NCBI GenBank assembly: GCA_965153455.1
Contig: OZ234493.1
Location: 14,126,213-14,190,212 of the forward strand
Length of the DNA stretch: 64,000 nucleotides
Direction of reading: 5' to 3'
DNA from: Sphagnum compactum
Taxonomy: Eukaryota
A program made the translations under genes and the position numbers. Of the stretch, positions 6,151 through 48,380 are shown piece by piece (within the stretch, counting starts at the first letter, position 1; every line of letters begins with the position of its first letter). The notes below the pieces were generated by a model. The model did not search any database and was not told the DNA's origin. It saw nothing but the letters and a program-made list of their open reading frames with translations.

Positions 6151-6174
6151 TATCTATCTATCTATCTATCTATC
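6151..6174. repeat. (TATC)6 / (GATA)6 microsatellite containing the PPR stop codon
   Basis: The minus strand reads GAA GAT AGA TAG within the array. Confidence 0.95.
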
Positions 6175-9100
6175 TTCTGCAACAAATTCATGTGACTTAT
6201 TTTCAGTTCTTATCCAGCTACACCCACCTCCTTTCTTAACGCCTCTGTCCTTCATCAAATATCTTACCTTCTCAACCTTTTCCCACATTCCAGCTGCAGC
6301 ATACATGTTTGAAAGCAGCACATATACAGCAGCATCTTGTGAGTCCAGCTTCAAAGTCCATTCAGCAACATGCTCTACAACCTCTACTTTACCATAGCGG
6401 TGGCAAGCACCAAGCAAAGGACTCCAGATTGAGGCATCTGGCTCAAATGGCATTCTTTGGATGAAGTCCTCTGCCTCCTGTAAGCATCCTGTGCGGCCAA
6501 GAAGGTCAACCATGCAGCAATAGTGATCCAGTGTGGGCATGACCTTGTAGTCCTGATCCATGGAACTAAAGTGTTGATGACCTTCATCCACAAGACCTGC
6601 ATGGTTGCAAGCAGAGAGGACATTGACAAATGTGATTCGATCTGGTTTGAAACCTTCTGTTTTCATCTGCTTAAAGAGTTCAAGGGCTTTATTCCCATAT
6701 CCATGCTGAGCATATCCACCAATCATGGCATTCCAAGACACTACATCTCGTGCAGGCATTTGGTCAAAGACTCTGCATGCACCCTCAATATTACCACTCT
6801 TTGTATACATGTCAATAAGGGCATTCCCCACACAGACATCTGCCTCAAGTCCAGCTTCACATATTTCTCTGTGGAATTCCATCCCTTCCACTAGGGCTGC
6901 TAGATTTGCACATGCATTGAGGATGCTGACAAATGTGATTTTATTTGGCTTTACACCTTCTCCTTTCATTTGCCGATAGAGATTAAAAGCTTCCTCACCA
7001 TATCCATGTTGAGCATATCCTCCAATTATCGCATTCCATGAAACCACATCCCGCGATTGCATATCATCAAAGACCTGCCGTGCAGCTGATATGCTTCCAC
7101 ACTTAATATACATGGTGATTAGGGCATTCCTCAAATTAACATCAGACCCAAATCCAGCATCAGTGATTTGGGCATGCACCTGCATTCCCTGTTTCAAAGA
7201 AGCTGGGCTGGTGCAAGCATTGAGAATGCTTATGTATGTGACCCTATTTGGTTCCACAAGTTCTTGTTGCATTTGATGAAAGACTTGAAAGGCCTCATCA
7301 TGGAGATCATGCTCAGCATATGCTGAAATCATTGCAGTCCATGCAACAACATTGCGGTTACTCAATTTGTCAAACACGTGGCGTGCCTCCTTGATACTTC
7401 CACACTGAGCATACATGGTGATGAGTGCAGGGCCCACATGAACATCAGACTCAAATCCACAACTGGTAATATAGGCATGTACCTGCTTCCCCTGCTCCAA
7501 AGCCACTGGGCTGGAGCATGCACTCACAATGCAAGTGAACAGAATGCGATCTGGCTTCACTGGTTCTTGTTGCATCTGACGAAAAACTTCCAAAGCTTCC
7601 TCAAAGAGACCATGCTCAACATACCCTTCAATCATAGCAGTCCATGAGATAACATTCCGGATTCTCATTCTGTTGAAAACTTGCCACGCATCCTCTATGC
7701 TTCCACACTTGCTGTACATTCTGACAAGGGCTGTCTGTATACGAACATCAAACTCAAATCCAGCTTTTATAATTTCAGCATGAACCCATTTCCCCTGTTC
7801 CAAAGCTTTTGGACTGCAACACGATTTCACAATGTTGAGGAAGGTTATGATGTCCGGTTTCACACCTTGGTGATGCATTTGGTTGAATATTCCAAAAGCT
7901 TCCTCATATTGACCATGGGCAGCATATCCACCAATCATTGCATTCCATGACACCACATTCCTATTTGGCATTTGGTCAAACACTTGGCATGCACTTTCCA
8001 CACTCCCACATTTGGCATACATGCTAACAAGGGCATTGTTCACATGAGCATCTGACAATTCATGTCCAGCCTGGATGATGTAAGAATGCACCAGTTTGCC
8101 CTGTTCCAGAGCTTCTGGACTAGCAGATGCATTTAAAATGCCTAGTAATGTGACCTTGTCTGGCATCATGCCTTCCCGCTGCATCTGCAAAAAGAGTTCA
8201 AATGCCTCCTCGCCACACTTGTGCTGTGCTAATCCTGCAATCATTACATTCCACGAGACCACATTCCGATCAGCCATGTTGTCAAACACCTGACATGCAT
8301 GCTTTATGCTCCCACATTTTGCATACATGTCAACGAGTGCATTATCCAAAATGGTGTCTGATCTGATCCTGCTTCTGATAATGTTGGCATGCACCTTTTT
8401 TCCCTTCTCTAGAGATCTAAGGGAAGTACATGCATTGACAACCCTGGTATAGATTATCCTGTCAGGTGTCACCCCTTGTGATAGCATTTGCTCATACAGA
8501 TTGAAAGTCTCCAGAAACTCCCCATTGCTGCTGTATCCTGCCAACATTGTAGTCCAGGTAAACATATCTCGTTTGCACAATTGGTCAAATACCTTACGAG
8601 CTTCCACCAAAGTCCCACACTTGACATACATAAGCAGAAGAGTGTTGGCTAAATACAGGCTCGGCTTGAACCCTGTCTGAATCATGTGGGTCTGGACCTG
8701 CTTTCCTGTTACCAGATCTTTCTTGTCAATACACCTGCGCAAGAGACTGAGATACGAATGGGAGCTCGCCTGTACACCCCATTGACTGCTGCATGGTTCC
8801 TTTTCTAGTTGTCCCTTGACAATCTGAAGAAGCCTCTCATCACCAGCCATGTCAGAAAAGCTCCTAAAAGCTCCCTGTTTTGACCATCCTTCAAAGCAGG
8901 CAACAACCATGATACTGGCCCCAGTACGATCTCCACTGTCAGTAACTGCCCATGTTGTCCTGCACACCTTCAGAGCTCCACTTACAAGATTTCAATAACA
9001 ATCTTCATGGCCAACTGTGGGAGGGAGTTCATTTAGACCAACATTACTATACAAAGAGATACCTTCAGAAATGCATGAGTGTGTGCATGTGAGCAACAAA

Positions 9101-11089: not shown

Positions 11090-14000
11090 ATGGACGTAGC
11101 AGCAGCAGCAGTGCATGTGCCTGCCATGCACTTCTCTCTCCCCGCGTCCTCGCGCTTGCACCCATTGCTGCTTCTCCCCACAGGAGCGTCGTCCTCCTTG
11201 CTGACCTCCACTTGCGCCGCAATCTCTCGAGGATTGCCCGTTCATCATGGTCTAGGGCGGACTGCTGTCCTCGTCGGGGGCTGCTGGGGACGACGAGTAT
11301 TCCCTCGCTTTTGGAGCGTGGTGATCACCAACCCCAAGGATCCTTTCCTAGCCGCAAGGAATGTCGGCTCCACTGCAGCGGTAGCCTCGGCGTCCGGTGC
11401 CGCTAGCTCTGCTTCTGGTTCAAGGAACGCGAATGTGGTCAGACGCTGGCGACCATCCACAGTCGTCGCAGGTGGTGAGTTTCTCCTCCGTTGTATGTAT
11501 GTGGGTTGTGTTTCTTTTGTGTTTTGGTCGCAACCGACACCTTCAAAACCCTAGACATTGTGGAGTTTTTCTTTCTCTGCAGTCATCACATAGATATGTA
11601 CTTGGACTAGCAGCAGCAACAACAACAACAAACTGTCCATCATCCTGAACTGTTCTGTTTTCTCTTCAATAGGTGATCTTGAAGGAGAGAGTTCAGCTGC
11701 TGCGAAGTCTCAGAGAAGTGGTGAAAGGGAAGAAGATTCTTTGCACACAAGTTCACAGGAGAAAAAAAGAGAGGGATACAGCAAAGCTGATAAAGCAGCT
11801 AGGAGCAACTCAGTTACAGCTGATGCTGGGAAGGGTGGTGGTGCATTCAACAAATTCAGAACCAAGTACCAGGCTTCTGCAATTGGACAGACCAAGTCGT
11901 ATTCTTCTTCAACTTGCAGCACACAACAACGTTCTTCTGGTGGAGGTCGTCGCACTTATGTCTCTGGCAGTAAATTCCTTAGTTCTGGTACACATGCAAA
12001 ACACATCTCTAGTGATGAAAAACTTGGTGCAGTTTCTTTTCATAAGAAAGAGAAAAAGGGTGGTGGCATTTTCATCACACATTGGCAAGTAGAAATCGGC
12101 TCACAATTTCTGATTGGAATGCCAGGTGCACATGTTTAGTCAATGCCTTTCATGATGCTGTCAAAGATCTCTGAACATGTGTGTGATTGTACAGTCAGTT
12201 ACACTTTGTTGGATGACACTGAGGCAGGACAATGCTGTGGGTTGTTACAGTGAGCTTGCAGGAAACAGTCAGTAAGAGCCGTTTGGCTCAGGAACACGAG
12301 GAGAAGATGCAGAATGGGGGTGATAGTCGCAAGCGAACTGGACCCAATATGAAGCCTGGAGTTATGGAGGAACCTAAAGTCAAGAGGAGAAAAGATCCAG
12401 CAGCATCTGACCTGCGACACTCGCTTGACATGTGCTCCAAGCATGCAAACGTCATGCAGGCACTTGAGCTTTATGACAAGGTGGTGGCAGAAGGGGCTCT
12501 GAGTTTCAACCAGTATAGTTTCAACGTTGTTTTGTATCTTTGCTCATCAGCTGCCACAGGTGTACTGAAGCGAGGGAAGAGCGGCAATGAGCGCAGTCAG
12601 CAAGGTCTTTGGTTGCTACCTTGCAGAAATTTAATGTTGGATTTCTAGTATTACTATTGGATGGAGTTGCCAAATTTGACACTTGTGAATCAGTTCCTTA
12701 CTGCACTCTTGAGACAAAGACACTCAGCAAGTTGTCAGTCATGGTATGCTGACATGCACACAAACGATAGCTGTTGCTAGAAGGATGTCTGGCAATACAT
12801 GAGAAGTCTAGTTGTCATGAGTTTAGAAGATGATGAACACAACCAGAAGCAATGGGGCTTGTGTTACCCAGCAGTTATGGACTTATGCTTACTGCTGACC
12901 TTTACAGGTGATGGAAAGGAACTGATTGGTGATCAAAATGCTGAAGAAGTTGTAGTTCTCTCAGATGATCAGAAAGCGTTGTGCTTGAAACGAGGTTTTG
13001 AGATTTATGAGGTAATGAAGTTGCAAGGGGTGCCACCTAATGAAGCCACTTTCACTGCTGTTGCCCGCTTGGCTGTTGCCAAAGGAGATGGGGATCTTGC
13101 CTTTGATATGGTCAAGCAGATGGCTGAGGCAAAGATCACTCCCAGGTAGAATATCTCCTGGTGCCTTAAATGTTTCATTATCTCTTGTATTTGATTGTTT
13201 GAGAGTCATCCATTGTGAGATCTGCCATATGATCATATCTCATTCTGCACTTTTCTGAAGTTGTCTGTCTGTACACTTCAGTTTTCTTTAAGCCATTCCT
13301 TGTGTAATGGGCACTGCATAGACGTGTAGAGACTGATTGCATGTTTCATGATTCTCTTAACCAGTAGAAGCTTATGTTTACTGCCTGCTTCTGAGCATCT
13401 TGTCATCTCTTTTATGCAGTATTTGAATTTGTGGTTTTTTCAGACTTAGGTCATACGGCCCAGCTCTTTACACTTACTGCAAAATGAAGGTTGTGGACAA
13501 GGCATTTGAGGTTGATGAGCACATGCGTGCAGCCGGTGTTCAACCAGAAGAAGCTGAATTGGAAGCCCTGCTGAAACTAAGTGTTGAAATGGGCTTAGAA
13601 GAAAAAGTGTACAGTTTACTCCATAGACTTCGCACCACTGTGAGAGAGTTTTCAGCATCAACAGTTGGAGTGGTGGAGCAGTGGTTTACTAGCAGTGCTG
13701 CTGAAAATGCTGGAAAATCAAAATGGGCAAACTTACCAGGAACAGATCTGGTGAAGGAAGCTGTGCAAAGGGGGGGAGGTGGCTGGCATGGGTTGGGATG
13801 GCTTGGAAAGGGATCATGGGAAGTAAAATCTAGCCAGCTTGACAAAGAAGGTGTATGTCAAACTTGTGGGGAGCATCTTGTGACTATTGACATTGATCCG
13901 AGAGAAACAGAGATGTTTGCAGAGTCCTTGTTCACATTGGCGTGTCAGCGGGAGGCCAAGAATAACGAGTTTAGAAAGTTTCAGGTGAGATTATGTGCTG

Positions 14001-16958
14001 TCTACATAGGTGGATTATAGCTTGACAGTCATCAGTCAGTGACGGAAGATATCATGCTTATGCTAGGGGACTTGGAAGTGTGGGTTATGATTGCTGGAGT
14101 GTTTTTGTGCTCAAATGGGAATACACAGGCTTGGCTTGATCGGCATGGCCCATTTGATGCCATTGTGGATGCTGCAAATGTAGGACTTTATAACCAAAAC
14201 TTTGGGGATGGAGGCTTCAATTTTTTTCAGGTAAACTTATGTCTACCTTATTTCCATGCTTGCAGCTTGCTTCAATTTAAGATTATATGAGATTATGAAG
14301 CTTGATGCTGTTGGCACAATTGAGGTACAAACAAAAATCAAAACTGTCCATAAAAAACCATTGATACATGCGGTGCATGACAATGCACAAAGAATGACGA
14401 GTGTCCACAAGTAGCATGTGTTCAGTTATCTCATGTTTTTGTTGAGCTTCTCTCCATGATCACATTGATGTATGTGTAGTGGATTGAGTCTGAGCTAGTG
14501 TCCTATGACTTGCATGCATTCACCATGCTAGCGGGTATCATTTTATGGCATTTCAGTCTTACCAGTTATTTCTACAGCTGATATTTGCAGCTAAGGTCTG
14601 AGAGAGCAAGTTGGTTTGTTAGAAATTTCTCAAGTTTAATATGGAGGAGCAGGGCTTCCAGTTTTTTTGAAACCGGATGTCTGATGTTTCTTCGATGTGC
14701 AGCTCAATGCTGTGGTAAATGGTATCCAGAAGAAGATTGGTTCCAAAAGAGAACCTCTTGTACTATTGCATCATAGACGTACCAAAGGGGGTGCTGCTGC
14801 TACACCAAATGCTTTGAGCTTGCTGAACCGATGGCAAAATGCAAACTGCATCTACACTACACCAACTGGCTCTAATGATGATTGGTATGTGCCAAGCTGG
14901 ACTAGTAAGTGGCAAAGTTGTACACTGATCCTCTGTGTAATTTGGTCTCTGTTACATTATTTTATGTGCATTTTGATGCTGTTGATGTAATTGTAATTTT
15001 GAACAAATTTAGATGAATGTGAACTGTTACTTTTGAAGAATGAAACCTGTAATGCATTTATGACATCTCACATTGGTTTGTTTCTCATTTTTCATAATTG
15101 ATAGTGTGGGATTGTTGTACATAAGACAGCCAAATAATTTTTGTTGTGAATCTGTAATTGCACAGTGATGGTTGGACTGATGATAGCCTTTTCAATGGCA
15201 CACCCTGCAGGTACTGGCTGTATGCAGCAGTAAGGTACAAGTGTTTGCTTGTCACTAATGATGAGATGCGGGATCATTTGTTCCAGCTGCTTGGGAATGA
15301 GTTCTTTCCCAAGTGGAAGGAGCGCCACCAGGTGGGATGTTGTCAGCTTCGAAGAGAGATCCAATTTGTCAGATTTTTTGTCTGGTCCATTTGGGGAATG
15401 GAATAATTGACTTATTTTATGTTTCTCTGCTGGATTTTGCCAGGTCCGCTTCACTCTAAACAGGAAGGATCCAGTATTTCACATGCCCCCACCATATTCT
15501 ATTGTGATCCAGGTGGGTCCAAAAAGCTACAGAACAACACCCCCCCAAAACAGGGTGTCTTGATGATATGTGAAGAGTGTCTGTCACAACAGTCAGAAGC
15601 TTCTGAAGTTAGTGGGGAGTCATGGCAGCCAGTCAGTGATATTGATGGTGAAGGAGATACTGTGTGTGAGTCACACATAGTCTTGGTGATGTATAAGTTT
15701 GTACTCCTCAATATGTGTTCTTATTGTATTTTGGCTAAGCATCAGGCAAATAGCCCAAGTAGTTGGAACTAATGGCTACCTTGCATATGGTGGCGTGGGT
15801 TCAAATCACCACTAGAGCATGGTAGATGTAACCTAATATATAGCAACCCAACTATAATAGGGATCACAGGGTCAGCTGATTGCTGAAAACCATGTGGGTA
15901 CATGGGGTCAAATCTTGGGGGAGGGTTGGGCAACTGCATCGTCCGTAGTACTGGAGTTTTGAATGTGATCACCACTGAAATGAAACAGTAGCCTGTGAGC
16001 TGTCATGCAGGTTAATGATCACTCAGACTAGATGCCTCCATTTTTTCCTTGTTTGCCATGCATGTTGCCTAGTCTTTGCATCTGACAAGGCAATGTTTGA
16101 TAAGCTATTTTGTTTGCGAAAGAGGCTCCCTATTTTTCTGGCTTCCTCAACTATGTGGTGGTGCTTCAGGAATCGGAAACAGGATCATGGCACATACCCA
16201 AGAGTGGTGGTGATGACATCACAACACCACGGGAATGGCTCTGTGTAACTAGAACTGGGCAAGTAGGTCTGAAAACTCTTCAGTCTGAGCAAGCATCAGA
16301 AAGCTTGAATTCAAGGCCTAAAGTGGATAGTGAGTTTGGGCCAGTTAGCCTGACCTGCCCACCCCAGAAAGTGGAGGTTCCAGAGCTTGAAGAGCAGCAA
16401 ACTTCTTCAAAGGGAGTATGTCCGCCAAACTTGCTGCAGTCCTTCAAAAGTCTCGACACTGAAGTAGTGCAAGAAAGTTTAAACACAAAGCCTGAAGTGG
16501 AGGATGAGTACAAGCCTGAGGATCCAGAACCATCTTCTCCAAAGAAAGTTCGGTCACCAAGGAGATCATTCATGTCCAAACCATTAGAAAGTTCAGGCAG
16601 AAAGTCTGAATTGGATGAAGTGTGCATGCCAGTTGGCCTGATTTCCCCACCACTGGAAGTTGAGGTTAAAGAGCCTGAAGAGCAGCCTTCTCCAAAGAAA
16701 GTACGATCACCAAGGAAATCTCATGTGACCAAATTGTCAGAAAGTTCAAGGCCTGAATTGGTTGTGGAGTGCAGGCCAGGTGGCCTGATCTCCTCAGCAG
16801 AGAGAGGAGAGGTTCCAGAGCCTGAAGAGCAGTCTCCTTCTCCAACCAAAGTCCGTTCAACAAGGAGATCTGGCTCACCCAATTCCTCAACACTTCTGCA
16901 GAAGCTCAAGACTGCAGAGAGAACTTGTACTGAAAAACCAATTGATTTTCAGATTTGA
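11090..16958 (+). CDS. PRORP: Proteinaceous RNase P (PPR + Zn-binding + NYN metallonuclease). Exons approx. 11090-11474, 11673-~12000/12090, ~12255-12604, 12908-13145, 13444-13984, 14129-14230, 14703-14884, 15211-15331, 15444-15512, 16170-16958
   Basis: Diagnostic motifs LDMCSK, PNEATFTAVARLA, PRLRSYGPAL, GGGWHGLGWLGKG, CQTC, DAIVDAANVG, TPTGSNDDWYWLYAA, VTNDEMRDH, KWKERHQV, MPPPYSIVIQES..GSWHIP. GT-AG junctions are phase-consistent, except the exon 2/3 boundary, which is uncertain. The Ala/Ser/Arg-rich N-terminus looks like a transit peptide. Confidence 0.93.
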
Positions 16959-18249: not shown

Positions 18250-20700
18250 TGCAAGCCTCATTGCCTCAAAGCTCTAGCAACAAAGTCTAGTTTACAATTT
18301 GTTAATTGTTTAGGGTCTAGGATCTTTGTTGCACAACGCATGTGCATCATGCACTTTGAATTTGCAACAATTGGAATTTGGTGTTCGTTCCTTCATGCAT
18401 GTTTTTCTATCAATTTGGCCAATCAATATTAGAGTTGTCGAAATCGAGCTATTGCTTGCAAGTTGTCAACAAGGTGGTGTTTCAACGATTATTGCTCAAT
18501 GTTCAAATTTCTAAACCCTCAAGGATTGTTCATTTCATGGTCTTGAATCTTGATTCTTTAAATGTGCTTGACGATTGCCTTTGTTCATCTTGTTCATACT
18601 AATAACTTCATTTGTTTAACTATGTATCCACTTGTCAGGAAAGACCAATTTGTTGGAACTTTGCAATTCAACTTCTATAAGTATTTGTTGTAATTCAAAC
18701 CTCCTAGTTCACATTATTATTATTTTAAATGTTTAATTATGTGTGTTTTGTGGTGTGGAGCACCTTGATGCTCCTTGGTTTTGTGTAGTTTGCATTATGT
18801 ATGTTATATGTGCACAAATTACAACTCCTTGGCATTTGCAATTGTGTAATGTGTGTACATTATGTGTGCAATGTATTGGCATGCTTGTGTGACTTGTCTA
18901 AACAACACTAGATAGACTTGGAATTGTGTGTATTTTGTAATGTACTTCAATGTGCCTTGCTTATGTGCACTATCTACATTGTGAGTGTGCAAGTTGTGAC
19001 TCATCAACATTTGCAATTGTGCAATGTGTGCACATTGCATGTATAGCATGTATAAATTGTTTGTGTGCTTATGTGACTTGTTTAGACTCCAAAAAAGATT
19101 GGATACACTTGGAATTTCAAACACATTTTGTTTGAATAACATTGCATACACTTGAACCTTGTTGCACATCTAGAATTTAGATTCTACTTTTGAGGTGGGC
19201 CTTTTGAACTTTTTATTGAACCTCCAAAGTTTAAAATCAAATTTGTTACTTTTGAATTTGTGCTTTGGGAATTGTTCTAAACATTTGGTTTTAACCATGT
19301 TTTTATGCCTTCAAATTCCAAATCGTTTTAAGTACAAGTGGTTCTTTACTTGCACCCATTGGGTCTTTTGCAATGTACTTGAATGTAGTAACATTGGTGC
19401 ACAAAGAAATCATATGCCTAACCTTAAATTGTAGATATTCCACCTTTAAATTGTGACATGAACATTTCCTTTCTTTTGAACCTTTTAAAACCCAAGTTGT
19501 TATTGAAGATGGGTTTACCTTACAAGGCTTCAAATTTGGAATTAAAGTTCAAGTCCAACACCAATAGGCTTCATTTGTCATTGGTGTGCATTGTATTGTT
19601 CATTGGACAAATTTTGCAATATAAACCTTTTCAAACCTACCTTTAGTGTTTCACATTAAGGTTTTTTACAATGTTTGCATATTTATTTTAGACATAGTTT
19701 CAAGATACATTTGGAGTTTATTAAATTGGTAAAAATCAATGAAATGAAGGACTACAAAAGATTGTGGGAACATCCAAACTAAATGGATATCCATGATTAG
19801 GCTTGTCAAACATGTGTTGTTTAAATATCACATTCTTTTCATGATGACATTGGATGCACCCATAATAGCCTTTACCAAATCTAACTTGTGTTTGTTGATC
19901 GATGTAGAAATATTGTTAGGGTTTGAATGTGATTATGTGATTCTTGAAAGCAATCCATTTTTTAATCAAAATTGCAAAACTATGTGACATTTTTTAATGT
20001 GATTTCATAACAATCGTCAAAATTTGTGAAGGGGAGGTATATTGGATGTATTGTGACAACCACTTTGGTTTCCAAAGTGATCATTCTTTGATCAATTTTG
20101 CTCATGAGAACATAACTTTTCATTGGATGACAAATTTTAATATAGGAACAAATCAATTGGCTTTTGAGCTCGTTGGGCATCATATTTGAGCCACATTTGT
20201 AGATTAGATGAAGGTAGTTGGTTTTGTTACAAAATATGTGTATGAAAACATTGTGACATTTGTGGAACAACAATGTGTAAAAGCTACCAGTAAGTTTATT
20301 ATAAAGTTGTAAGACTAATTCCTAGCCCAAGATTTGATGGGTGCATTTGGGGTTGTGTATTTTCAATCTTGGTTGCAACCAAAACCTAAAGTAAGGTTTG
20401 TTGCTAATTTTGCAATTTTCAAAGTTACCCATGAAGAACAATGTTGAATTAACAATACAAAAACCATTTGATATGGACCCACCTACCAAGTTGCGGAGGA
20501 TTTTTTTCTCATCACAAATTCTAGAATAAAAAATCCTTAAAAGTTTTTCACCATGCATATTTCTTTTTTGGAGTAACAATTTAAAATTGGAACGAAAGTA
20601 GAACCTAGTATGGTGTGGAAGCTTGAAATTGGATTTAAATTTTACAACTGCCTTTTGCATGATCCATGCGTTTTTGGATATGGTGATTTCATAAACATAA
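18250..20700 (+). mobile_element. Highly degenerate hAT-like DNA transposon relic
   Basis: The ~19680-19930 segment translates with frameshifts to YF.HS.K.HLEF.KL...WISMIRLVKHVL..Y.....SNLCLLIDVEILLG, similar to the hAT TRW-motif region. AT-rich, many stops; boundaries approximate. Confidence 0.45.
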
Positions 20701-23700
20701 AGCACCATCATTTTTCCTTTTTGTATTTTTAGTACCCTCTCTTGGCTGAAAAAATTCTTTGATAGCCTATCAAAAATAACTTACATGGGGCACAAGGTAC
20801 TTGCCGGGCTGTTTTTTTAATTTAAAATTTAATTCTTTTCTTTTTTTATTTTTATTTTTCTTTTAAATTTTTATAATAAATAGTTTTATTTTTCTGTAAT
20901 TACTATTAAGCAATTACATTTTTTAAAAATGTCCATTTTTTATTCATTTAACTAATTCAATTCTCCATTTTTTTTTCTTATATATGTATATATATATTTA
21001 CAATTATTTCTACAATGTTTCATTTCTATTTCAGGGTATGAAAATATTCTTCAAAGGCAACAAAACTTCAAAGCAAAATAGATAGAAACAAAATCCTTTA
21101 ATTTGTCAAAGTGGCAAAATTACAAATTCAACATCATAAGGTCAAAATATCGAATCTATAGTCAAATGTTAAAATCAAATGCAAAAAGGATTCATAAGAG
21201 GAAAGTTATGAATCACCTATTGAAATCAAATGTTCATCCATAAAATGAAATGTTGTGGATTAGTTCTTTCAATGTTCATGTGTCTTGGATACCATTCATT
21301 TAATCCCCTTTCGTGAGCAAACACCATGGCAACCCCAACTCCCAACAACCCAACACAAGACCTTGGGCATCTTCATGGATCGAAGACATTAACCTAATTT
21401 TTACATCCTTCCCACAACTTTTCTCCCTAATCCTCTATTATGCAAGTGTTACAAATAATAATCAAAAGTTATCAAATGAAGTTTGTCAAAAGTATGAAAC
21501 ATCCAAAAATGAACCAAAATTAAATCTTATCTCCTACATTTGGTATTCCTAACTAGCTTGGAAAAGAGTTAGGATCAACTACATATGTAATGTTAATAGG
21601 GCAATTCTGCAAATGATTAAAGACATGGTTGGAAGTAGTGTTAACATTCATTATCTCAAGAGGGTGACGCAAAAAAATGGTATCCAACCGATCCTTATAC
21701 TTGTGTAGTTCTTTCTCAAACATGGTGTTCCAAAATGAATCTCTTAAATCCATCACAAATCTAGATCCGCCAAATTCGCCAATGCCAAGAATCTCCAACT
21801 TGCACCACATTCTTCCTTCAATCCATAGAACCAACACCAAATGCCAAAAACTTGACTAGCAATCTTCTCCTGATTAATAGAGCCAATGTTACTAATCAAC
21901 AATAACATTATATCTAGAATATGGAACCCTAGTAATGATGTCAAAAAGAGGTCTTCCAAATGTAATAACAATGGAAGAATCATGAACTCAAAGTACAGGA
22001 GAACCTCCAACCACACCATCAGACACGACGCCAATACTACCAACAATCATAGCACTAGTAACACCAAAAATATCAAAATGCCTTTCTCCAACAAAATCAT
22101 TATAAACCTCCAAAATCAAAAATTATATAAAGAAAGAAAACACACAAAAAACTAGAAACAAAAGATAATAAGTCACTTACCATTTCATCCACCTACATTA
22201 GTATTTTCATACGTAACCTTCTCCTCGCTGAAAACCTCTTCAAAATGCAGTGATCAACCAAATCTGAACTCACTAGAAATAATCTACTACATCGCTTTAT
22301 GACGTAATGCTTGTCAATCTAGTTATACCTACAAAAACAAGTTGCCACTTCAAAAAAACATCAAACAAATTCAAATTAAAAAAAGGTTCAGAAACTTACT
22401 TGCCATATGAAATAGGGTCCATGTGGCCTATTACCTCCACACCATATTCACAAGGTACAAGTGCCTCTTCCATTCTTGTAATTCCAACACCTCGGCTAGT
22501 CTTGTTTGACAACATTTTTTTGCATAAATCATGGACATTGATAGTTAACTTGTCCAAAATCAAACAAAGTTAATTATAACCAATACGAATAGTCATAAAC
22601 CATACCTCATCAGAAGCCTTCCACTTAGGACGTCCATGTTTAAAACGTAGAAATAGTGGATGTGGACCTAATTTTTCACCAGACCACTGATGTAAACGTT
22701 AATGAACAAGTTTTAAGAAGTCTCAATCACATCAGAAATTGGGCAATCAATTACAGGTCAATGCCAATTTGTAGAACAACAAGATATGTCTATTTTCAAG
22801 TTTTTGGAAATGCATCGACAAAACCTTATAACAATGTTAGTTGGTAAAAACAACAAACCAAACTCATCAAAATCCACAATGCAAAATTTAGAACACCCTT
22901 TTATGAAAAACAAATGCATGCAAAAATATTCAAATCGCTGGTTTAAGCCAAATGGGAAGGTAGGCTAATACATTGTTTGTGCCAGCATTCTGCATTTTTT
23001 TTTAATAGACAAAACATCTGATTTTTTGATAGTTTTACTAAGACCTGCTATTGAAAATCACAAACCTACTTCATCACCAACAACTTTCACTCGCTGATAC
23101 CTTGCATCTATGAAGATATTAAATGGAATAATAAATGTTTTACCTAATTCCACAATGCATTATTATTGCCTTAGCCTTATCAGATGTCCAATTTACCTCT
23201 TGTAAAATTGGATACTTCAAAAAGAAAAAAAATCAAAATGTAAACAACATGACTCCTAAAAAATAGAAAAACTAATTAAAACAATAAATAATAATTGGAA
23301 AGTTAAAAATAATAAAGAAAATAATTAGGTTTAGGGTTTTAAATTTAGGTTCAAAGTCATAGCAACTACAACATAGAAGGTGGCAACACACCTTACATAA
23401 CTCAACAAACTTTAAAATAATAAATCAAAACAAAAAAAAGGTGGAAGCAAAAAAAATGTTGTGATTTATGTAGAAGAAAGTTTTGTTTGATTTTCCAAGT
23501 AGAAAAACTACAAAGGCAAAAAATAATTAAAATGAAAAAAACCTATAAAAATTTATTTACACAAGTTTAGGATTTGGGAAATTTTCATAAAACCCTAAAA
23601 CACAATTGCAAAAAACAAAACAATAATTTAATTTAAAACATAGGTGGGTAAAAGTTACCTAGTTGGAAGATACATGTTACCATCTTTTTTTACAACTTGC

Positions 23701-23989
23701 AAAACAAAAGATGAAAGCATATCAACCAGATCTTTTATAAAAGATTCATCTTTTGAAAGATATGTGATTGATCTTGTTGTATCAAAACCATGAAAAACTT
23801 TCTAATCATCAAATGCATTTTTCGCCCAAATTTCAACGTGCTTGTTGATTCTCTGACCTTTGTTTACAATTTCAACATCCCTCTCATCAAAATCTAAAAA
23901 ACAATTTTTTAGAGGAAGATCCCTAATAAAAAAATCATGGTTTGTCCTTTCCCCACCATGAAGTCTTAGGTAATAGTCAACTGATAATC

Positions 23990-24185
23990 ATATGGACAAG
24001 AAACACAGACAAAGGTAGGACAGAAGATGGAATCAGATGCAAAACACACACTCACAGAAGTAAGAGATAGAACGGAATCAAATGTACAAGACACAATAAC
24101 ATAAGTAAGACAAAGAATGGAATTAGATGAAGAAGACACATTGACAGAAGTGAGACAAAGAACAAAATTAGATGTAGAAGAAACA
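23990..24185 (-). repeat. ~42-bp tandem repeats (14-aa S.S.SILCLT.V.V units) inside the Crypton-like element
   Basis: Periodic in ORF 23966-24490. Further 42-bp (24614-24701) and ~60-bp (25150-25380) tandem repeats lie nearby. Confidence 0.7.
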
Positions 24186-25641
24186 ACATTAATTATTGAA
24201 GGACGCATAAAAGAATCAATTGAAAAACATGAACTAGAAGGAACATCATATTCATCAAGGTTTAGAAAAATGTAAGGATTAAAAAAATGACCAAATAGAT
24301 TAGGATTACATTTAGGAGGAGACAACACATGAAATTGAGAAACATTTTCTATCAGAGAACAAGAATTGATAAACAATTCATCACCACAATGATAATCAAC
24401 AAAGATGTTAGAACCATCAGTTGACCACACTAAATTATTAACATAAAAAATAGAACCAGAAGGAAGACTAATAAGAGGACCATTAAACATTGTACAAAAA
24501 CAAAAATATATATAAAAAAGGGAAAGAATACTTTATAAGACAATGTTCGTGGTTGTAACCACACCAACACCTACGCCATAGAAATACACATTGAATATGA
24601 AATATAAATATTCTACAAAACAAAATAAATCGACATTAAAATCAATGTACACAACAAAACAAAACAAATCGACATTAAAATCAATGTACACGACAAAACA
24701 AATAGAACCCATAAAAAAAAAAACAAGGTATACATCCCTATAGGACATAATCGCACACATGATGTTTGTGTGGTTGTAATCACAAAATTGAGAAACTTGT
24801 AAAAAACACAAAAACACAAGAATTAAAAACAACACAAGTTGCACAAAAAAAAAGATTTCATGTTGTAAAAAAATTAGCAATGCAAGATCATTTGTGATGT
24901 AGAAAAATCAATGATGCACGAGCAATTGCAATGCAAAAAAATCAATGATGTAACAACAATTGCAATGTAAGAATATATGATGCAAAAGAATTAGCGATGC
25001 AACAACAATTGTAATGCCCGCGAGAACACTTGTGATGCAAAAGAAGTTGCAATTGAATTGAACCCATGGAGATTGCACAATTAAACATAAACATGGCTAT
25101 AATATTGAAACCTAGAGGACAACGGTGTGGCAAGAGATGTTGAGTGAAAACTCACAAACAAACAACAATAGTAGAAATATATAAAACATGACAAAACAAC
25201 AAAATTACTGCACGCACAACCAAAAACAAACAATAGAAATCTTTGAAACACAATAAAGCAACAACACTATTGTGCACACAACCAAAAAACAAACAATAGA
25301 AACCTCCAAAGCACGATGAAGCAGTAACAGTACTTTGTGCACAACCAAAAACAAAGACGCAACACTGAGAAAACAAAAAGAGATGCAACACCTAAAGATA
25401 GAAAGACAATGCAATTGACATAAATGAGTTCCATTCCAAACTCAAAACCTTTTGCATCATGGGATCCACTTTTGCAAATGTTGTGCGATCCATTTTCGAC
25501 AAAAGCGATGCAAAGGACTTTCCATTTTTGGTGGAACAGCAAAGGTTGTGAAATGATGGAATCTGACAATGAAAAGGTGATGACAAACAAGAGTTGTCGA
25601 ATCTTACAATCTATAAAAAATGGACAACACTTTACATACGT

Positions 25642-25743
25642 GAAGGGCTTGTGTATGGGACCTTCCAGATTTTCACCCTGATCCTTGACCTCCTAGCCTC
25701 GGGCAGGATCTCAAATTCGATAGGTCCCATACACAGGCCCTTC
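25642..25743. repeat. 22-bp inverted repeat (1 mismatch) with a 58-nt loop
   Basis: GAAGGGCTTGTGTATGGGACCT (25642-25663) pairs with AGGTCCCATACACAGGCCCTTC (25722-25743). Confidence 0.9.
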
Positions 25744-26479
25744 TTCTATACCTTGAAACAATTTTTGGGTCTACAAAACCTATTAGTTATTCAAAAAATA
25801 CTTGAAAGCTTGTAGCCCTGAAACTTACTCAAACAACTCTCCTATAACAAATCATATCCAACCAACTTTTTCCCCTAATTGCTGAAGAACTACATACTTC
25901 TTCCTTACAATGCAGTTGGGCAATTTGACAAGCAAGATGCCCATGTGGCAATTCCAAGTCAATGAGGGGCTAATGTATAGCCAACTCAGCTAAAATGGAG
26001 AAGCGAAAAAAAAAAACACATAACATGTGCCCATTGCATTGATCATCAAAACCATAAGGAAATCATGCAAAGAATCAAAATGCATGGTACCAACTTTGTC
26101 GATTCCCCTTTTGCATCAAAGGGTATGGTGCTAATTGTTGATCAAAGTTGTTCTACCTCACATTGCTCAGTAGGCTATTCAAGTCTATTGCATACAATGT
26201 ACTCATACACACAACTATCATGATTCCAATTGATAGGTATACATTTGTTTGTAAGTTGTACTTTGAAATTTGAGAGGTCATTTCCCTGCAATGGTTTATT
26301 CTTTGCTTAGTTAAAGCCCTTGGCCATGGGCATTACCAAAATAAGGGCCCTTGTGAGGTGGAGCTGAGTAGAGGCCCAATTCTAGTAAAGCCAATGGTCG
26401 AGAGCTCTAACCGAGCATAAAAAACCTGCTCTAATATATATACTCTCCCATAATACCCATAATGCCCAGTACTGTAAAA

Positions 26480-35159: not shown

Positions 35160-36316
35160 CTTATCATTTTTTAAACACAACATCATCATTTTTTAACCAT
35201 ATCCGACACTTAATTTATTAAAATTTTTTTTTTTCACATTTACTAGAACCAACCCGCTGTAGAAGCTTTTACTCAGGGGTACATATTCATTTATTTAATT
35301 AAAAATAAAAGAAAATTTCAACATTTTGAAAAATTAAAAACAATTTATAGATGTCAAATCCAATGTCAAAATGCAAGAATCAAACATTTACCACATGTTG
35401 CACTTTTACCACATGTTAACTAACCGTTCTAAATTTTATCTCAAATGATTTGCGTAAAGTTTTCACCTTCTCACCTATATACTTGGCACAAAGGGATGGC
35501 TCTACACCTCCCCATAGATAAATATATATTTGCGGAGCTTTTAAAGTTATAGTTTTGTTTTTATTTTCTATTTTTGATGATGGGCCAATCATATTGGTTA
35601 ATTGTAAACACTTGGGAGCTACCCCACTTCATTACTAGAATGTTAAACAAAGTTAAGGTTTAAGTTATACTTTAAAAAATTAAAATAAAAATACTTGCAT
35701 ATCAAAACATATCCAACTTCGGTATGGGTATTTCTTATATATAGATTTAGAGTTATGAATGTAAGATATAATTTTTCACATTGTTGTCCTATCAATGCAT
35801 AAGCTTTCACTTATGTTTTCAAAAAGAAAGAAGTAAAGAAAAAAAACGCTGCAGGAGCGGCTCCTTTTCAAAGTAGGCTACTGCTCCAATTAATGGTTTT
35901 CTTGGAGTCCCGGGTTCAAATTCAGGTAGCTAAACAAATTAAGAAAATAAATAAATGTTTCGTGATAACAATTTTAAATTTTTTAGTAAAGTGGGTCGGG
36001 ACCAGTGTTCGCCGGTTATTTCTTTTTGACCCGGTTATCATCCTGGGTACGGATCCGGGTACCAAAATAACCTACCTACCACGTCTGAGATTTAGGAATA
36101 CATGGGTAGGAACCTACCCGGCTCAGTATGAACTTTCAATACCCATTACTACCCTGTTGATAGGGTATGACTTTGGGAAAAAAAAGCACCCAACTTATAC
36201 CCTAATTAATGGGTTCAGGTGAAAAACACCTGGGTCAGTTATTCATCCAATCTTCATCCATGTATATTTGTTCATCCAAAAAGTTCCGTCCATTTAGGTT
36301 TTGTCTTTTTTGGCCT

Positions 36317-36325
36317 AAACCCTAA
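36317..36325 (+). promoter_or_regulatory. Telo-box AAACCCTAA upstream of SMC6 (mirror copy at 54838-54846)
   Basis: Motif match ~450 bp upstream of the ATG. A pyrimidine tract plus CAG acceptor ending at 36772 suggests an intron just before the start. Confidence 0.5.
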
Positions 36326-36773
36326 ACCTAAAGCGGCAAATCTATCATTCACAAGCTTGTTTGTTCAACAACTTTGTTTTTCGGCAATGACATTATGTAG
36401 CATTCACATCTTGTAGCACTATGGTTTATGAGTGAATGGTCATCATCTTCGACAATGTTATTTTTCTTCAGTGTTGTGAGTTCGAAGCGTTGGGATTTAC
36501 TTTCAATGCTATGAGTACGAATTTGGAGTGCAAGATTCACGAACACACAAAGGTGGGATTTGTGTCGGGACTTGGAATAGATTCAACCGTCCTCAACAAT
36601 CAATTCGTCAAGCTTTCCAAGAAATGTTTCTTTCTTATATTGTAAATGTGTGTGCAGAAGCTTAAGATTCCAGCAAGATCATAGCAGGAATGTTCGCCTT
36701 TTTGGGGGTTAGGAGAAGAGGTTTTCTAGATGGTGTTGCATGACACCATGCATTGGATCTTTTTTCTGGCAGG

Positions 36774-39700
36774 ATGGAAGAAATTGCAGAGAAGGCAGGG
36801 TCAATCAAGAGGATAAAACTGCAAAACTTCATGTGCCATAGTAGCTTGATCATTGAGCTTGAGGACCACGTGAATTTCATCACAGGGCAGAATGGGAGTG
36901 GCAAGAGCGCCATCCTCACTGCTCTCTGTGTTGCATTTGGAATCAAAGCACGGGGCACACAGCGGGCATCCTCCTTGAAGGATTTTATCAAGAATGGATG
37001 TGGCTATGGTTCTGTGTCGGTTGACATTAAGAATGAAGGAGAGGATGCCTTCAAACCTTCCTTGTATGGTAAGGTCATCACAGTGGAGCGCCGAATCACA
37101 GAGACCACCCAGACCTTCTGTATGAAGGATGAGAAGGGCAAGAAAGTTGCCGGCAAGAGGGAGGACCTTCAAGAGCTTTTGGACCATTTCAACATCGAGG
37201 TGGACAATCCTTGTGTCATCATGACACAAGACAAAAGCCGAGAGTTCCTCCATGCCGGGAGTGGCAAGGAAAAATTCAAGTTTTACTTTAAAGCTACACT
37301 GCTGCAGCAAGTGGCAGAGCTCCTGATGACAATACGGGAGAAAATTGAGAATGCAGGTGCTGTGGTTGAAGAGCTCAAACAGGAGATGGTGCCATTCATT
37401 GAGGAGCTCAAAACTCTAGATGAGCAGATCAGGAATGCGCAGGAAATTGAAGAGATGGCACAGCAGGTTGGTGTTCTAAAGAAGAAACTTGCTTGGTGTT
37501 GGGTATATGATACACAGAAGAAGCTCCAACTAGAAGCACAAAACCTTGAGAAGTTTCAGAGCCGCATTCCAACCTGCCAGAGAAAGATTGATGAAGCTGA
37601 GGAGGTGACCAAAAATGTGCAGGAGGCCATCCGCCTGAAGCGAGCTTCAATTGCTAGCCTACTTGAAACATCTAATCAACAGAGGAATTCCCAAAATGAG
37701 CTTCAGCAAGCACTCTCCCTAGCAACTCGGGAAAAAGCAGGATTGGAAGAGGACTTGAACAACAAGCAGCGTCAGATTGCAAGGCAGATGGAGCAGTTGC
37801 AAACACTTGAGCAACATGTTACAGAAGTTCGCAATCGTCATGTCCAGGATACTCAAGCTGAAGAGGCAGTAAGACAGGAGCAGTTTGAAAAGCTTAACCT
37901 GAATGTTGAAGCTGCGCAAAGTGAGCTCAGACAGATTCGAGAAGAGGAAGCAAACCTGCAAGGACAAGTTGATGCCATGAATCAGCAAGTCAATGGGATC
38001 AAGTCAGAAATGGAAGAGCTTGGAGCCAAGCTTCGAGATACACAGGGCTACATTCGGCGGCTCAAGTCCCAGCAGTCCAATGTGATGACCACGTTTGGAG
38101 GAGACAAAGTCCTGAAGCTGCTCCAAACAGTGGAGGCTCAGTCCCGTGGGTTTACAAGCCCACCAGTTGGCCCTCTTGGTTCACACACCGCACTGGTTGG
38201 AAATGATAAATGGTCACTTGCAATCGAAGTAGCGGTTGGCAAGCTCCTGAATGCTTTTATTGTCACCAATCAGAAGGATATGCTACTACTTCGTAAATGT
38301 GCCCAATGGTCAAACTATGGTTATGTTCAGATCATCATATATGATTTTGATCGGCCTCCTTTGCAGTTGCCACCACATCTGTTGCCTGACTCTAGTCTCA
38401 GGACTGTTATGTCAGTTCTTCAGTCTGATAATCATGTTGTCATGAATGTCCTGGTGGACCAGGGAAGCATTGAAAGGCAAGTCCTGGCAAAAGACTACAA
38501 CGAAGGGAAGCTCATTGCCTTTGGTAATTCTCATCTCAGTAACAATGTGAAGGAGGTTTTGACTGCAGATGGAATAAAACTGTTTTCTCGAAATGGTAGT
38601 GAGACTATACTGAACAGGGATCGGCGAGTCCAAGGGCGACTTGGGGTTCATGTTGGCCATCAATTGGAGACGGCAGAGGTTGAGGCCTCTGCACTGCAGG
38701 GAACTATCCATTCAGCTGAGAACCGCAAGAGAGCTGCTGCTGATTCTGCTCACAACTTCCAGATGCAATTACAGGCTACGAGAAGGAGACGACAGGACTT
38801 CCAGCGGAACATCACTGGGCTTGAGTTGCAATTGCGAGACATGCAAAATGCTGCTCAAGCAGAGTCGGCCATGGATGTGGAGCCTGATGTCAACGAGCTT
38901 GAAGGGGAGATTTCAAAGGCGAGGGAAGGGATACAGGCAAATGAAGACATGCTGGTGAAGTTGACATTCAGTCTTCAGAGGGCCCAAGAAAAGGTTGATG
39001 CAGCAAAAGCTCATTTTGATGCACTCCGGGAGTCAGCAAGAGGAGACATTGAAGCCACCGAGGTGGCTGAAGAAGAACTTCTTACCCTTGAGGAGGAACT
39101 CAGAACAGCTGTCCTCGCTTTAGAGCATTTTCAGAAAATCATGCAAACCAGGGTTTTACCGGACATATGTGAAGCTGAGAAAGCAGTTGAGAATCTCCGC
39201 CAGGAGTTAGAGGAAACCACTGGCAAAGCATCCCAAGTTTGTCCAGAGGAGGAGGTGACAGGTCTTGGTGGAGTTGATAAAAGCCCTCAGGAGTACAGCA
39301 TCATTCTTTGTCGCCTTCAAGATCAGGTGCGTAGGGAAGAGCGAAACAATGAGCCTCTAGAAGATCTTGAAAACAAGCGCCAGAAAATTGAGCGCCGTGT
39401 GGTGAAGAAAGAGCTCACGTATAAAAGCCTCAAAGGGAAGCTTGAACTTTTGGACGGAACTTATCAGATCCGATTAAAAAAGTTCCAAAAGAATGCTATT
39501 CGGCTTCGACAGCAGCTTACATGGCAATTTAATGGGCACTTACGAAAAAAGGGCTTCAGTGGGAGTGTCAAAGTGGACTACTCTACTGAGACGCTCTCGT
39601 TAGAAGTGCAGATGCCTCAGGATGTCTCTAACAGTGCTGTCAGGGACACCCGAGCTCTATCAGGTGGTGAGAGATCCTACTCCACATTGTCTTTTGCGTT

Positions 39701-39914
39701 GGCTCTTCATGAGATGACTGAAGCACCATTTCGTGCCATGGATGAGTTTGATGTCTTCATGGATGCAATCAGTAGAAAAATCAGCCTTGATACTGTTGTG
39801 GATTTTGCTGTCCAGCAAGGATCTCAGTGGATTTTCATCACACCTCATGACATCTCCTCAGTGAAAGCAGGGCCATTTGTAAGGAAGCAGCAAATGTCTG
39901 CACCCCGCCCTTGA
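36774..39914 (+). CDS. SMC6: Structural maintenance of chromosomes protein 6, single coding exon, 1046 aa from ATG 36774
   Basis: IKLQNFMCH, Walker A GQNGSGKS, Q-loop IMTQDKSREFL, coiled coils, hinge (PPVGPLG), signature LSGGERS, Walker B/D-loop RAMDEFDVFMD, FITPH and C-terminal APRP. Confidence 0.96.
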   Translation: MEEIAEKAGSIKRIKLQNFMCHSSLIIELEDHVNFITGQNGSGKSAILTALCVAFGIKARGTQRASSLKDFIKNGCGYGSVSVDIKNEGEDAFKPSLYGKVITVERRITETTQTFCMKDEKGKKVAGKREDLQELLDHFNIEVDNPCVIMTQDKSREFLHAGSGKEKFKFYFKATLLQQVAELLMTIREKIENAGAVVEELKQEMVPFIEELKTLDEQIRNAQEIEEMAQQVGVLKKKLAWCWVYDTQKKLQLEAQNLEKFQSRIPTCQRKIDEAEEVTKNVQEAIRLKRASIASLLETSNQQRNSQNELQQALSLATREKAGLEEDLNNKQRQIARQMEQLQTLEQHVTEVRNRHVQDTQAEEAVRQEQFEKLNLNVEAAQSELRQIREEEANLQGQVDAMNQQVNGIKSEMEELGAKLRDTQGYIRRLKSQQSNVMTTFGGDKVLKLLQTVEAQSRGFTSPPVGPLGSHTALVGNDKWSLAIEVAVGKLLNAFIVTNQKDMLLLRKCAQWSNYGYVQIIIYDFDRPPLQLPPHLLPDSSLRTVMSVLQSDNHVVMNVLVDQGSIERQVLAKDYNEGKLIAFGNSHLSNNVKEVLTADGIKLFSRNGSETILNRDRRVQGRLGVHVGHQLETAEVEASALQGTIHSAENRKRAAADSAHNFQMQLQATRRRRQDFQRNITGLELQLRDMQNAAQAESAMDVEPDVNELEGEISKAREGIQANEDMLVKLTFSLQRAQEKVDAAKAHFDALRESARGDIEATEVAEEELLTLEEELRTAVLALEHFQKIMQTRVLPDICEAEKAVENLRQELEETTGKASQVCPEEEVTGLGGVDKSPQEYSIILCRLQDQVRREERNNEPLEDLENKRQKIERRVVKKELTYKSLKGKLELLDGTYQIRLKKFQKNAIRLRQQLTWQFNGHLRKKGFSGSVKVDYSTETLSLEVQMPQDVSNSAVRDTRALSGGERSYSTLSFALALHEMTEAPFRAMDEFDVFMDAISRKISLDTVVDFAVQQGSQWIFITPHDISSVKAGPFVRKQQMSAPRP

Positions 39915-42782: not shown

Positions 42783-43143
42783 GATTGCCAAAGAAATTGT
42801 AGACAATTGGCTAGAAAAGCATGGATATCGCTGTTGCCATCAAATCTCTCTCAAGCTCTGGAATCAAGTCTATTCTCGAAAGAAGAACAAGAAACAACAA
42901 CAAGAACACGAAACAAGAACAAGAACAAGACCAAGAAACAGCAACAAAAACAAGAACAAGAAACAGCAATAAGAAAAAGAAACAAGAACACGAAACAAGA
43001 ACACAAAACAAAAACAAGAAACTATCAAGCTATCACATCTCTATCAATCTGTCGATGGATCAAGTCTATTCTCGAAACAAGAACAAGAACAAGACGGGGA
43101 ATTCAGTAGCGAATAGCGAGAGCATGAGAAAAGAAGTATGGAA
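42783..43143. repeat. ~360-bp (ACAAGA)n-rich insertion present only next to the left arm
   Basis: Interrupts the homology with 48374-48381. Internal repeat ATCAAGTCTATTCTCGAAA at ~42863 and ~43059. Confidence 0.8.
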
Positions 43144-48296: not shown

Positions 48297-48380
48297 CTAT
48301 ACAAGACCAACTTAAGGTCATGTCAACTACAAACTGTGGAAAAACATTTGAAATGTTACATTGTATTGTAACTTGTTATG

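Follow-up and report, generated by a model that had tools for sequence, protein, structure and literature searches.

A probable old, dead copy of a DUF3504/CryptonA-type tyrosine-recombinase element in a 64-kb window of Sphagnum compactum DNA

Cryptons are among the least understood of the eukaryotic DNA transposons. The described systems closest to the locus reported here, a gene relic on the minus strand of a 64-kb stretch of Sphagnum compactum DNA (64,000 nucleotides of contig OZ234493.1; the whole stretch is called the window below), are CryptonA and the transposon-borne DUF3504 recombinases of animals and of Glomeromycota (the 'Glomhoppers'). According to the available text of Kojima and Jurka (PMC3212892), DUF3504 was derived from Crypton recombinases, Crypton hosts were animals, fungi, oomycetes, and a diatom (with Chlamydomonas under plants in a figure legend), and animal Cryptons, or CryptonA, lacked terminal repeats. 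The available text of the Glomhopper paper (PMC13465315) described DUF3504 as widespread in Opisthokonta. Our literature search found no description of Crypton-type elements in land plants in the text available from the papers concerned (including PMC11630846, PMC10288648, and PMC3537659); Repbase, the repeat tables published with genomes, and the species lists in the supplements of PMC3212892 and PMC13465315 may include plant matches. The only recombinase-derived plant domain that we found in print was the ALOG domain, which binds DNA as a stand-alone domain and contains a zinc ribbon, whereas the gene considered here corresponded to a whole DUF3504-type recombinase.

The analysis presented below indicated that 20695-25751 of the window (minus strand) is very probably a dead copy, and an old one, of a multi-copy DNA element whose sole recognisable gene encoded a DUF3504/CryptonA-type tyrosine recombinase with two domains. 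The plant element resembled CryptonA and the Glomhoppers in having such a recombinase as its sole gene and in the layout F.(L/I)RG..E, SKN, (W)(Y/F)..PVG.N.L, N-x-S/T-x-R...T.(L/M), TGHR...Y. It was also like CryptonA in its QRICH1-like N-terminal domain, its introns, its many truncated or decayed copies, and its lack of a reverse transcriptase (RT). It differed in its host, a land plant, whereas the available text of PMC13465315 and PMC3212892 named Opisthokonta or animals, fungi, and stramenopiles; in carrying Lys at the His position of the HxxR motif; in its marginal Pfam scores; and in its ends, which had an inverted repeat of about 25-30 nt and a palindrome of about 100 nt, unlike the ends reported for animal Cryptons.

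An earlier note, made from the letters of the window alone, had proposed a Crypton-like relic at 22320-23150. Minus strand 22964-22758 translated as PTFPFGLNQRFEYFCMHLFFIKG..., and minus strand 22698-22399 read, in a single frame, ...PHPLFLRFKHGRPKWKASDEVWFMTIRIGYN, a TAA stop, and LCLILDKL...LSNKTSRGVGITRMEEALVPCEYGVEVIGHMDPISYGK. A word-index search with a 101-residue read-through of the latter piece (X at the stop) identified P0001, a 191-aa hypothetical protein that was 64% identical to the query and whose gene model continued through the intron. We compared a two-sequence profile (the window piece plus P0001) with 1.84 billion representative proteins and obtained 238 proteins with E<=1e-3, 74 with E<=1e-10, and 1 with E<=1e-30, most of them short open reading frames (ORFs). 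The family included hypothetical proteins of the liverworts Riccia sorocarpa (P0044, P0129, and the intact 551-aa P0196) and R. fluitans (P0078 and P0064), LOC112277641 of the moss Physcomitrium patens (P0161 and isoforms), and long members from unnamed assembly products (P0152 and P0159). The UniRef label of P0196 was 'DUF3504 domain-containing protein', so automatic annotation had already reached the family.

We scanned the window in all six frames with a profile built from 15 long relatives. Four collinear pieces, all on the minus strand, were found in one place, and the best matches elsewhere had E 1.5 and 4.9. Specifically, 23921-23661 matched family profile positions 30-116 (48.3 bits, E 1.9e-16), 23219-22707 matched positions 116-285 (127.3 bits, E 2e-40), 22716-22396 matched positions 283-385 in a frame different from that of the preceding piece (83.2 bits, E 4.8e-27), and 22310-22182 matched positions 391-433 in a shifted frame (3.8 bits, E 0.0056). 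The first two matches provided independent support because the query that found the relatives covered only 22396-22698. The peptides that had been read by eye at 22964-22399 were thus real and beyond chance by profile (E 2e-40 and 4.8e-27). The interval 22320-23150 proved to be part of a longer relic, about 23921-22182, which added an N-terminal domain (23921-23659), an intron (23658-23215), and a tail past K-Y-N. The parts of the relic were as follows.

23659-23921, minus strand: exon with the N-terminal, QRICH1-like core-binding domain (profile positions 30-116; tblastn with P0129 and P0152).
23215-23658, minus strand: intron 1, 444 nt, GT..AG, phase 2 (the profile matches to either side stop at position 116).
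22717-23214, minus strand: first part of the catalytic domain (profile positions 116-285; hhalign equivalences to P0162; 7 in-frame stops).
22400-22716, minus strand: second part of the catalytic domain, past a frameshift near 22716 (profile positions 283-385; tblastn; 2 in-frame stops).
22329-22399, minus strand: putative intron 2, 71 nt, GTAAGT...TTTTTGTAG, phase 2, immediately ahead of the Tyr codon (sequence reading).
22182-22328, minus strand: last exon, with the Tyr codon at 22327-22325 (profile positions 391-433, shifted frame).

The N-terminal exon read ...INKHVEIWAKNAFDD, its 1 in-frame stop, and KVFHGFD...LVDMLSSFVLQVVKKDGNMYLPT. Joining across intron 1 gave a split codon, AG/T, that restored the conserved Ser of S(L/I)QGLLRA; the same gap was present in related loci, P0152 was unbroken there (...YPPRSLQGLL...), and P0158-P0160 had extra residues. 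In the first part of the catalytic domain, box I was HLFFIKG, with Lys (22901-22899) replacing Arg, and the hairpin Lys of ISKN lay at 22805-22803. The earlier note had taken LFLRFK for the F.LRG..E box; the profile alignments placed it instead in the 'YYLQP' stretch ahead of WY...P.G.N.L. The second part contained VWFMTIRIGYN followed by a stop and L, NKTSR (N 22506-22504, K 22503-22501, and R 22494-22492), and IGHMD (H 22425-22423).

The proposal of a 71-nt GT-AG intron at 22399-22329 that yields K-Y-N was exact in sequence. GTAAGT began at 22399, AG lay at 22330-22329, and AA (22401-22400) plus G (22328) would form AAG, so that the spliced product would read AAG-TAT-AAC (K-Y-N) and then directly a TAG stop. 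This reading fit the family's KYN/QYN/KYD and the spacing to the IISG motif. Across 21 distinct copies, GT was present in 18, and among the 20 copies that covered the other sites, AG and the TAT codon were each present in 17. Splicing of intron 2 is a prediction from sequence; a single RNA run had 0 reads within 20500-26000, a count that carries no weight for or against expression. In other subfamilies (P0025, P0063, P0065, P0082, and P0036), which started near the KN.K.D motif, ...GHRD.KS(Y/F)..Y(N/S)... was unbroken, so intron positions vary among subfamilies, and the suggestion that the catalytic Tyr sits on a separate exon would hold for the window's subfamily but not for those that read straight through KY.

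In the last exon, (K)-Y-N-stop was followed by a 1-nt deletion near 22308/22307 (CATTAC in the window, CATTTAC in paralogs) and by a conserved tail, ALRHKAM, two stops, IISSEFRFG, a stop, and SLHFEEVFSEEK, which was in register with ...RAMQR(I/C)ISGE... of the family. The gene in the window had about 14 in-frame stops, 2 frameshifts, and 2 GT-AG introns. Its catalytic set was K, K, K-x-x-R, and H, with Y only once spliced and a stop after it, and the Arg past GH was Met. With approximately 14 stops and 2 frameshifts, the window copy can make no protein, and it also has the changes of box I Arg to Lys and post-GH Arg to Met.

Two further observations concern the gene. The TAG stop after K-Y-N (22321-22319) was common to L008, L022, L024, L026, L014, L016, and L050, and other paralogs had CAA (Gln); copies may have multiplied with the gene already broken (by trans mobilisation or duplication), or gene conversion may have occurred. 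Just upstream of the recombinase homology was a 188-aa open frame (23966-24532, minus strand) with no Pfam match. It was still open, at 204 aa, in the orthologous loci L007 (6303-6914) and L008 (6291-6902), and could represent an N-terminal exon of low conservation or have arisen by chance.

The family assignment came from the relatives. Among 17 plant-family proteins scanned, PF12012 (DUF3504) was listed for 11, and 3 exceeded the gathering score of 29.7 bits: P0044 (31.7 bits), P0105 (30.1 bits), and P0159 (32.7 bits), of which P0105 and P0159 were 91% identical and hence not independent. P0152 (28.2 bits) and the intact P0196 (19.9 bits) fell under the cut-off, and Phage_integrase was weakly matched over the NK..R/GH/Y stretch of relatives. 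For comparison, the canonical DUF3504/CryptonA member P0162, which has a twin in P0195, scored 116.6 bits with PF12012, 54 bits with QRICH1, and 24.6 bits with Phage_integrase. An hhalign comparison of 14 plant members with P0162 gave 98.8%, E 5.5e-17 over 301 columns (P0162 residues 109-424, which included the QRICH1, DUF3504, and Phage_integrase regions and spanned both domains), and phmmer aligned P0152 with P0162 at E 1.9e-11. These alignments show significant homology to a canonical member over both domains. All of the motifs were in register, with the following equivalences.

Plant F(L/I)IRG..ELR: FALRGGKEHR in P0162.
Plant SKN: SKN in P0162.
Plant VWF..PVG.NTL: CWYAPVPVGHTKL in P0162.
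Plant ITNKSGR..GITRM: RTNHSLRATAATRL in P0162.
Plant TGHRD.KSY.KY: TGHRSVEGVRSYKR in P0162.

An AlphaFold (AF2) model of P0196 was made from a 52-sequence alignment (mean predicted local distance difference test score, 72.3; predicted template-modelling score, 0.56). Its best Foldseek matches in the PDB were Cre/Tre-DNA complexes (E 6.5e-7 to about 1e-5, about 360 columns), followed by QRICH1 (9hjt_H, E 1.8e-5), Tn1549 and integron integrases, and XerA; human topoisomerase I was a weak match (1sc7_A, E 0.01). The model thus predicted the two-domain Cre/Int fold, helical core-binding plus catalytic, for the relative P0196, not for the window copy. In the ESM Atlas, the nearest clusters were DUF3504/Phage_integrase/QRICH1 proteins of molluscs and cnidarians (0.98). 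Apart from their shared catalytic fold, type IB topoisomerases and telomere resolvases have no known sequence relation to the plant family.

We also counted the catalytic residues in the stored family sequences that covered each column. At the His position of HxxR, Lys was present in 145 of 159 sequences and His in none (0/159), and the second Arg of the motif was kept in 63 of 154, with many of the ORFs there coming from decayed copies. The His of GH was kept in 109/122, the Tyr in 43/53, and the hairpin Lys in 19/26. Box I had Arg in 9/19 and Lys in 9/19, a Lys count that was inflated by the Physcomitrium isoforms. The intact members kept Arg, Lys, Lys-x-x-Arg, His, and Tyr. The variant NK(T/S)xR box pointed out in the earlier note was borne out by these counts, which support Lys for His in HxxR as a family trait rather than a product of decay. 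In vaccinia topoisomerase (pentad R-K-K-R-H plus Tyr), a Lys occupies the position that would correspond to the HxxR His of recombinases. By analogy, Lys at this position need not abolish cleavage.

To sample the window's subfamily, metagenome contigs were scanned with a 7-sequence alignment of that subfamily, and the loci represent that subfamily only. From 203 candidate stretches, 70 loci were confirmed; grouping at >=96% identity over >=800 bp reduced these to 42 clusters, or about 42 distinct places. The copy-bearing contigs were of plant origin, as one flank had a WRKY ORF. All 70 loci were decayed, with at least 3 stops within the aligned parts, and both intron gaps recurred at the same profile positions. 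The loci L007, L008, and L036 occupied the same place as the window copy in a related genome; identity was about 85% within the element and 89-95% in the flanking DNA. The insertion thus predates that genome split, and the window copy, at about 85% identity at the same place, is neutral old DNA. Both of two DNA runs with the same organism label contained the window copy, one identical and the other different at about 1% of sites, and no insertion polymorphism was seen between these two runs.

The element ends were defined by the copies. The features of the whole element were as follows.

20695-25751, minus strand: whole repeat unit, the probable decayed Crypton-like element, about 5.06 kb (homology to paralogs with unrelated flanks).
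20695-20720, unstranded: left arm of an inverted repeat, flush with the element 3' terminus (alignment with the right arm).
25612-25637, unstranded: right arm of the inverted repeat, set back about 115 nt from the right end (aligned with the left terminus after reverse complementation).
25642-25743, unstranded: subterminal imperfect palindrome at the element 5' end (repeat search: 31 nt, 84% complementary).

Homology began with ACATAAAGCAC (20695) and ended with ...CTTCTATAC (25751), and the left terminus of the paralogs at 20695 was A(T/C)(G/A)TAAAGCAC.... The depth of matching loci was 25-48 over 21300-24500 and about 10 at either extremity, and the copies had in common 1.5-1.8 kb of non-coding sequence to either side of the gene. 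The left terminal 25-30 nt was an inverted copy of 25612-25637, which sits just inside the palindrome. The match A(T/C)GTAAAGCAC..ATTTTTTT was present in the window copy and another 7 locus rows (from about 4 distinct copies). The palindrome arms (25642-25672 and 25713-25743) were separated by a 40-nt spacer, and aligned paralogs had the same layout. We therefore observed a multi-copy element with common ends and the recombinase as its sole enzyme, as in Cryptons, with every copy seen being decayed. Fungal and stramenopile Cryptons are marked by an absence of terminal inverted repeats (TIRs) and by terminal direct repeats of 4-6 bp; here, an inverted repeat and a palindrome were found instead.

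Three minor observations were made on the structure of the element. Upstream of the gene were tandem arrays of about 34-nt units (24846-25016) and about 63-nt units (25160-25347). Many paralogs lacked 24520-25615. Two distinct copies (L018/L013 versus L010/L011) shared about 140 nt past the common left terminus, including a short hairpin, which was due to either a longer subfamily or a segmental duplication.

Homology to Cre and other tyrosine recombinases suggests how working members might act. The N-terminal core-binding domain and the C-terminal catalytic domain would clamp the DNA, and the Tyr of the K-Y motif would attack a phosphodiester to form a 3'-phosphotyrosyl link, supported by Arg (box I), Lys (hairpin), Lys-x-x-Arg replacing His-x-x-Arg, and His (GH). 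The element would be expected to leave as a circle and to re-insert by site-specific recombination without target duplication, and the inverted repeat and subterminal palindrome would be likely binding sites. In structure, the intact relative resembled Cre of phage P1 most closely, with both domains matched, and the two presumably share the same chemistry, but identity was only 13-14%, Cre has His in HxxR, and Cre acts on the 34-bp loxP site, whereas the plant element has no defined equivalent.

Several results weighed against assigning the window copy to a Crypton-type element. Six translated window pieces compared with Pfam at E<=10 matched no recombinase family and gave only unrelated weak matches (E 0.11-0.24). 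The recombinase assignment consequently rests on the relatives, and the Pfam comparison suggested in the earlier note put 3/17 relatives above the PF12012 cut-off and none of the window pieces. Even the passing PF12012 scores of the relatives barely exceeded the cut-off, and P0196 reached 19.9 bits. The family profile found nothing significant among PDB sequences (best integrase, 3nkh_A, E 0.28; QRICH1, E 1). The TM-scores of the Foldseek matches were low (0.30-0.33 by query length and 0.44-0.50 by target length), with root-mean-square deviations of 8-11 A. An intact copy was absent from the 70 loci, and neither a target-site duplication nor a short terminal direct repeat was seen by eye in 4 flank classes. 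The inverted repeat at the element ends was at odds with the absence of such repeats reported for CryptonA in the available text of PMC3212892. The absence of RT from a decayed copy counted for little, as the recombinase there was likewise invisible to Pfam. Finally, transposition, excision circles, and catalysis with Lys for His are predicted by homology.

The alternative that fared best, which we nevertheless consider improbable, was that the relic is a pseudogene of a host family that was domesticated long ago from a recombinase, with copies that arose by ordinary duplication rather than by transposition. Domesticated DUF3504 genes (ZMYM2-4, QRICH1, KCTD1, KIAA1958, and WOC) have the same domain pair, and QRICH1 (9hjt_H) was among the fold matches. 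The Riccia members were annotated as ordinary genes, and the 70 loci included neither an intact copy nor a target-site signature. In Physcomitrium, a gene model joined Coilin_N to a recombinase part without NK..R, GH, and Y, so that the catalytic end was lost, as in the domesticated animal genes. However, the available text of PMC3212892 describes the domesticated genes as single-copy, conserved, and without catalytic residues, whereas the plant family is a multi-copy repeat with defined ends and intact members that retain the catalytic Arg, Lys, Lys-x-x-Arg, His, and Tyr. Moreover, about 42 distinct loci shared about 5 kb of DNA in which homology ended at the same two points beside unrelated flanks, and the flanking genes varied between loci (WRKY, kinase, ankyrin, and DTW).

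As for the Physcomitrium models themselves (P0183, P0186, and P0161), some fused Coilin_N (PF15862, 41.8 bits) to 291 recombinase residues that were 42% identical to P0196 (E 2e-67) and that stopped short of NK..R, GH, and Y. This arrangement suggests a possible domestication. Newer NCBI models separate Coilin_N from the recombinase part, which makes the fusion uncertain.

A still less likely alternative to a Crypton-type element, and one to which we assign little weight, was that the repeat comes from a DIRS/Ngaro/PAT-type retroelement, of which it represents the recombinase end, the RT part having been lost or lying outside the repeat. Such retroelements are likewise mobile in eukaryotes, encode a tyrosine recombinase, and have unusual repeats. 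According to the available text of PMC13465315, these repeats are inverted or split with internal complementary regions, and the terminal/subterminal inverted repeat found here is atypical of described Cryptons. DIRS, Ngaro, and PAT elements differ from the plant element in that their units also encode RT and RNase H. Across 9 read-through frames covering the remainder of the 5-kb element, Pfam detected 0 families, including no RT, RNase H, or methyltransferase. We also surveyed up to 8 kb of flank at the 70 loci, which contained 33 ORFs of >=200 aa (24 distinct, 10 of them scanned). Among the 10 scanned ORFs, RVT_1 was found only in L002, and RNase H with an rve integrase, a mark of long terminal repeat (LTR) elements, was found only in L058; the remaining scanned ORFs were host genes or had no match. 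Retroelement ORFs thus flanked only 2 of the 70 loci, one of them an LTR element, which supports the view that RT is not consistently linked to the element. In addition, introns were kept at fixed places across copies, and the protein matched DUF3504, which DIRS and Ngaro recombinases reportedly do not (Kojima and Jurka, PMC3212892, available text).

Chance likeness of short motifs in AT-rich non-coding DNA, which would fit the lack of a direct Pfam match for the window pieces and a language-model look-up that linked a 108-aa part of P0001 to Cation_ATPase_N (0.93), was refuted by the 238-protein family, the 64% identity of P0001, the 70 related loci, and the collinear profile matches (E 2e-40, 4.8e-27, and 1.9e-16) across 1.7 kb in one place only, and has a negligible probability. 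The Cation_ATPase_N assignment itself (ESM Atlas, 162 shared features) was rejected as a motif-level look-alike.

The view of the relic as a decayed, intron-bearing member of a multi-copy plant DUF3504/Crypton-type family, put forward in the earlier note, therefore agreed with the hhalign comparison to P0162, the Foldseek matches, and the 70 loci. The family represents a plant branch of an already known type of element, with family-wide Lys for His and unusual ends. A more far-reaching proposal, which we make tentatively and regard as doubtful at present, is that bryophytes have their own undescribed Crypton-type lineage. Such a lineage would have a topoisomerase-IB-like Lys (an R-K-R-Y tetrad), inverted-repeat and palindrome ends, and intact, possibly active liverwort members such as the 551-aa Riccia protein. 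At least one domestication would also have taken place in a moss, with a catalytically truncated domain fused to a coilin N terminus.

The window locus has no function and is of value because it points to the family. If the family is a land-plant branch of Cryptons, then their known host range is wider, and the family offers a natural His-to-Lys variant of the catalytic tetrad in which the role of that residue can be tested. Its defined ends (inverted repeat plus palindrome) would be suited to a first biochemistry of Crypton recombination sites, and the Physcomitrium coilin fusion would parallel the ZMYM and QRICH1 domestications.

Elsewhere in the window, 6169-8991 (minus strand) encoded an intact 941-aa pentatricopeptide repeat (PPR) protein with an E motif, and 13427-16955 (plus strand) contained pieces of a PRORP (protein-only RNase P) gene. 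The PPR protein and the PRORP pieces identified the window as land-plant nuclear DNA. The window also contained a 7.5-kb inverted duplication (35277-42785 and 48378-55886) with 99.93% identity, around which were further repeats of 95-98%. Each arm of the duplication had an intronless 1056-aa ORF (36744-39911, plus strand; 51252-54419, minus strand) with SMC_N and AAA_23 matches.

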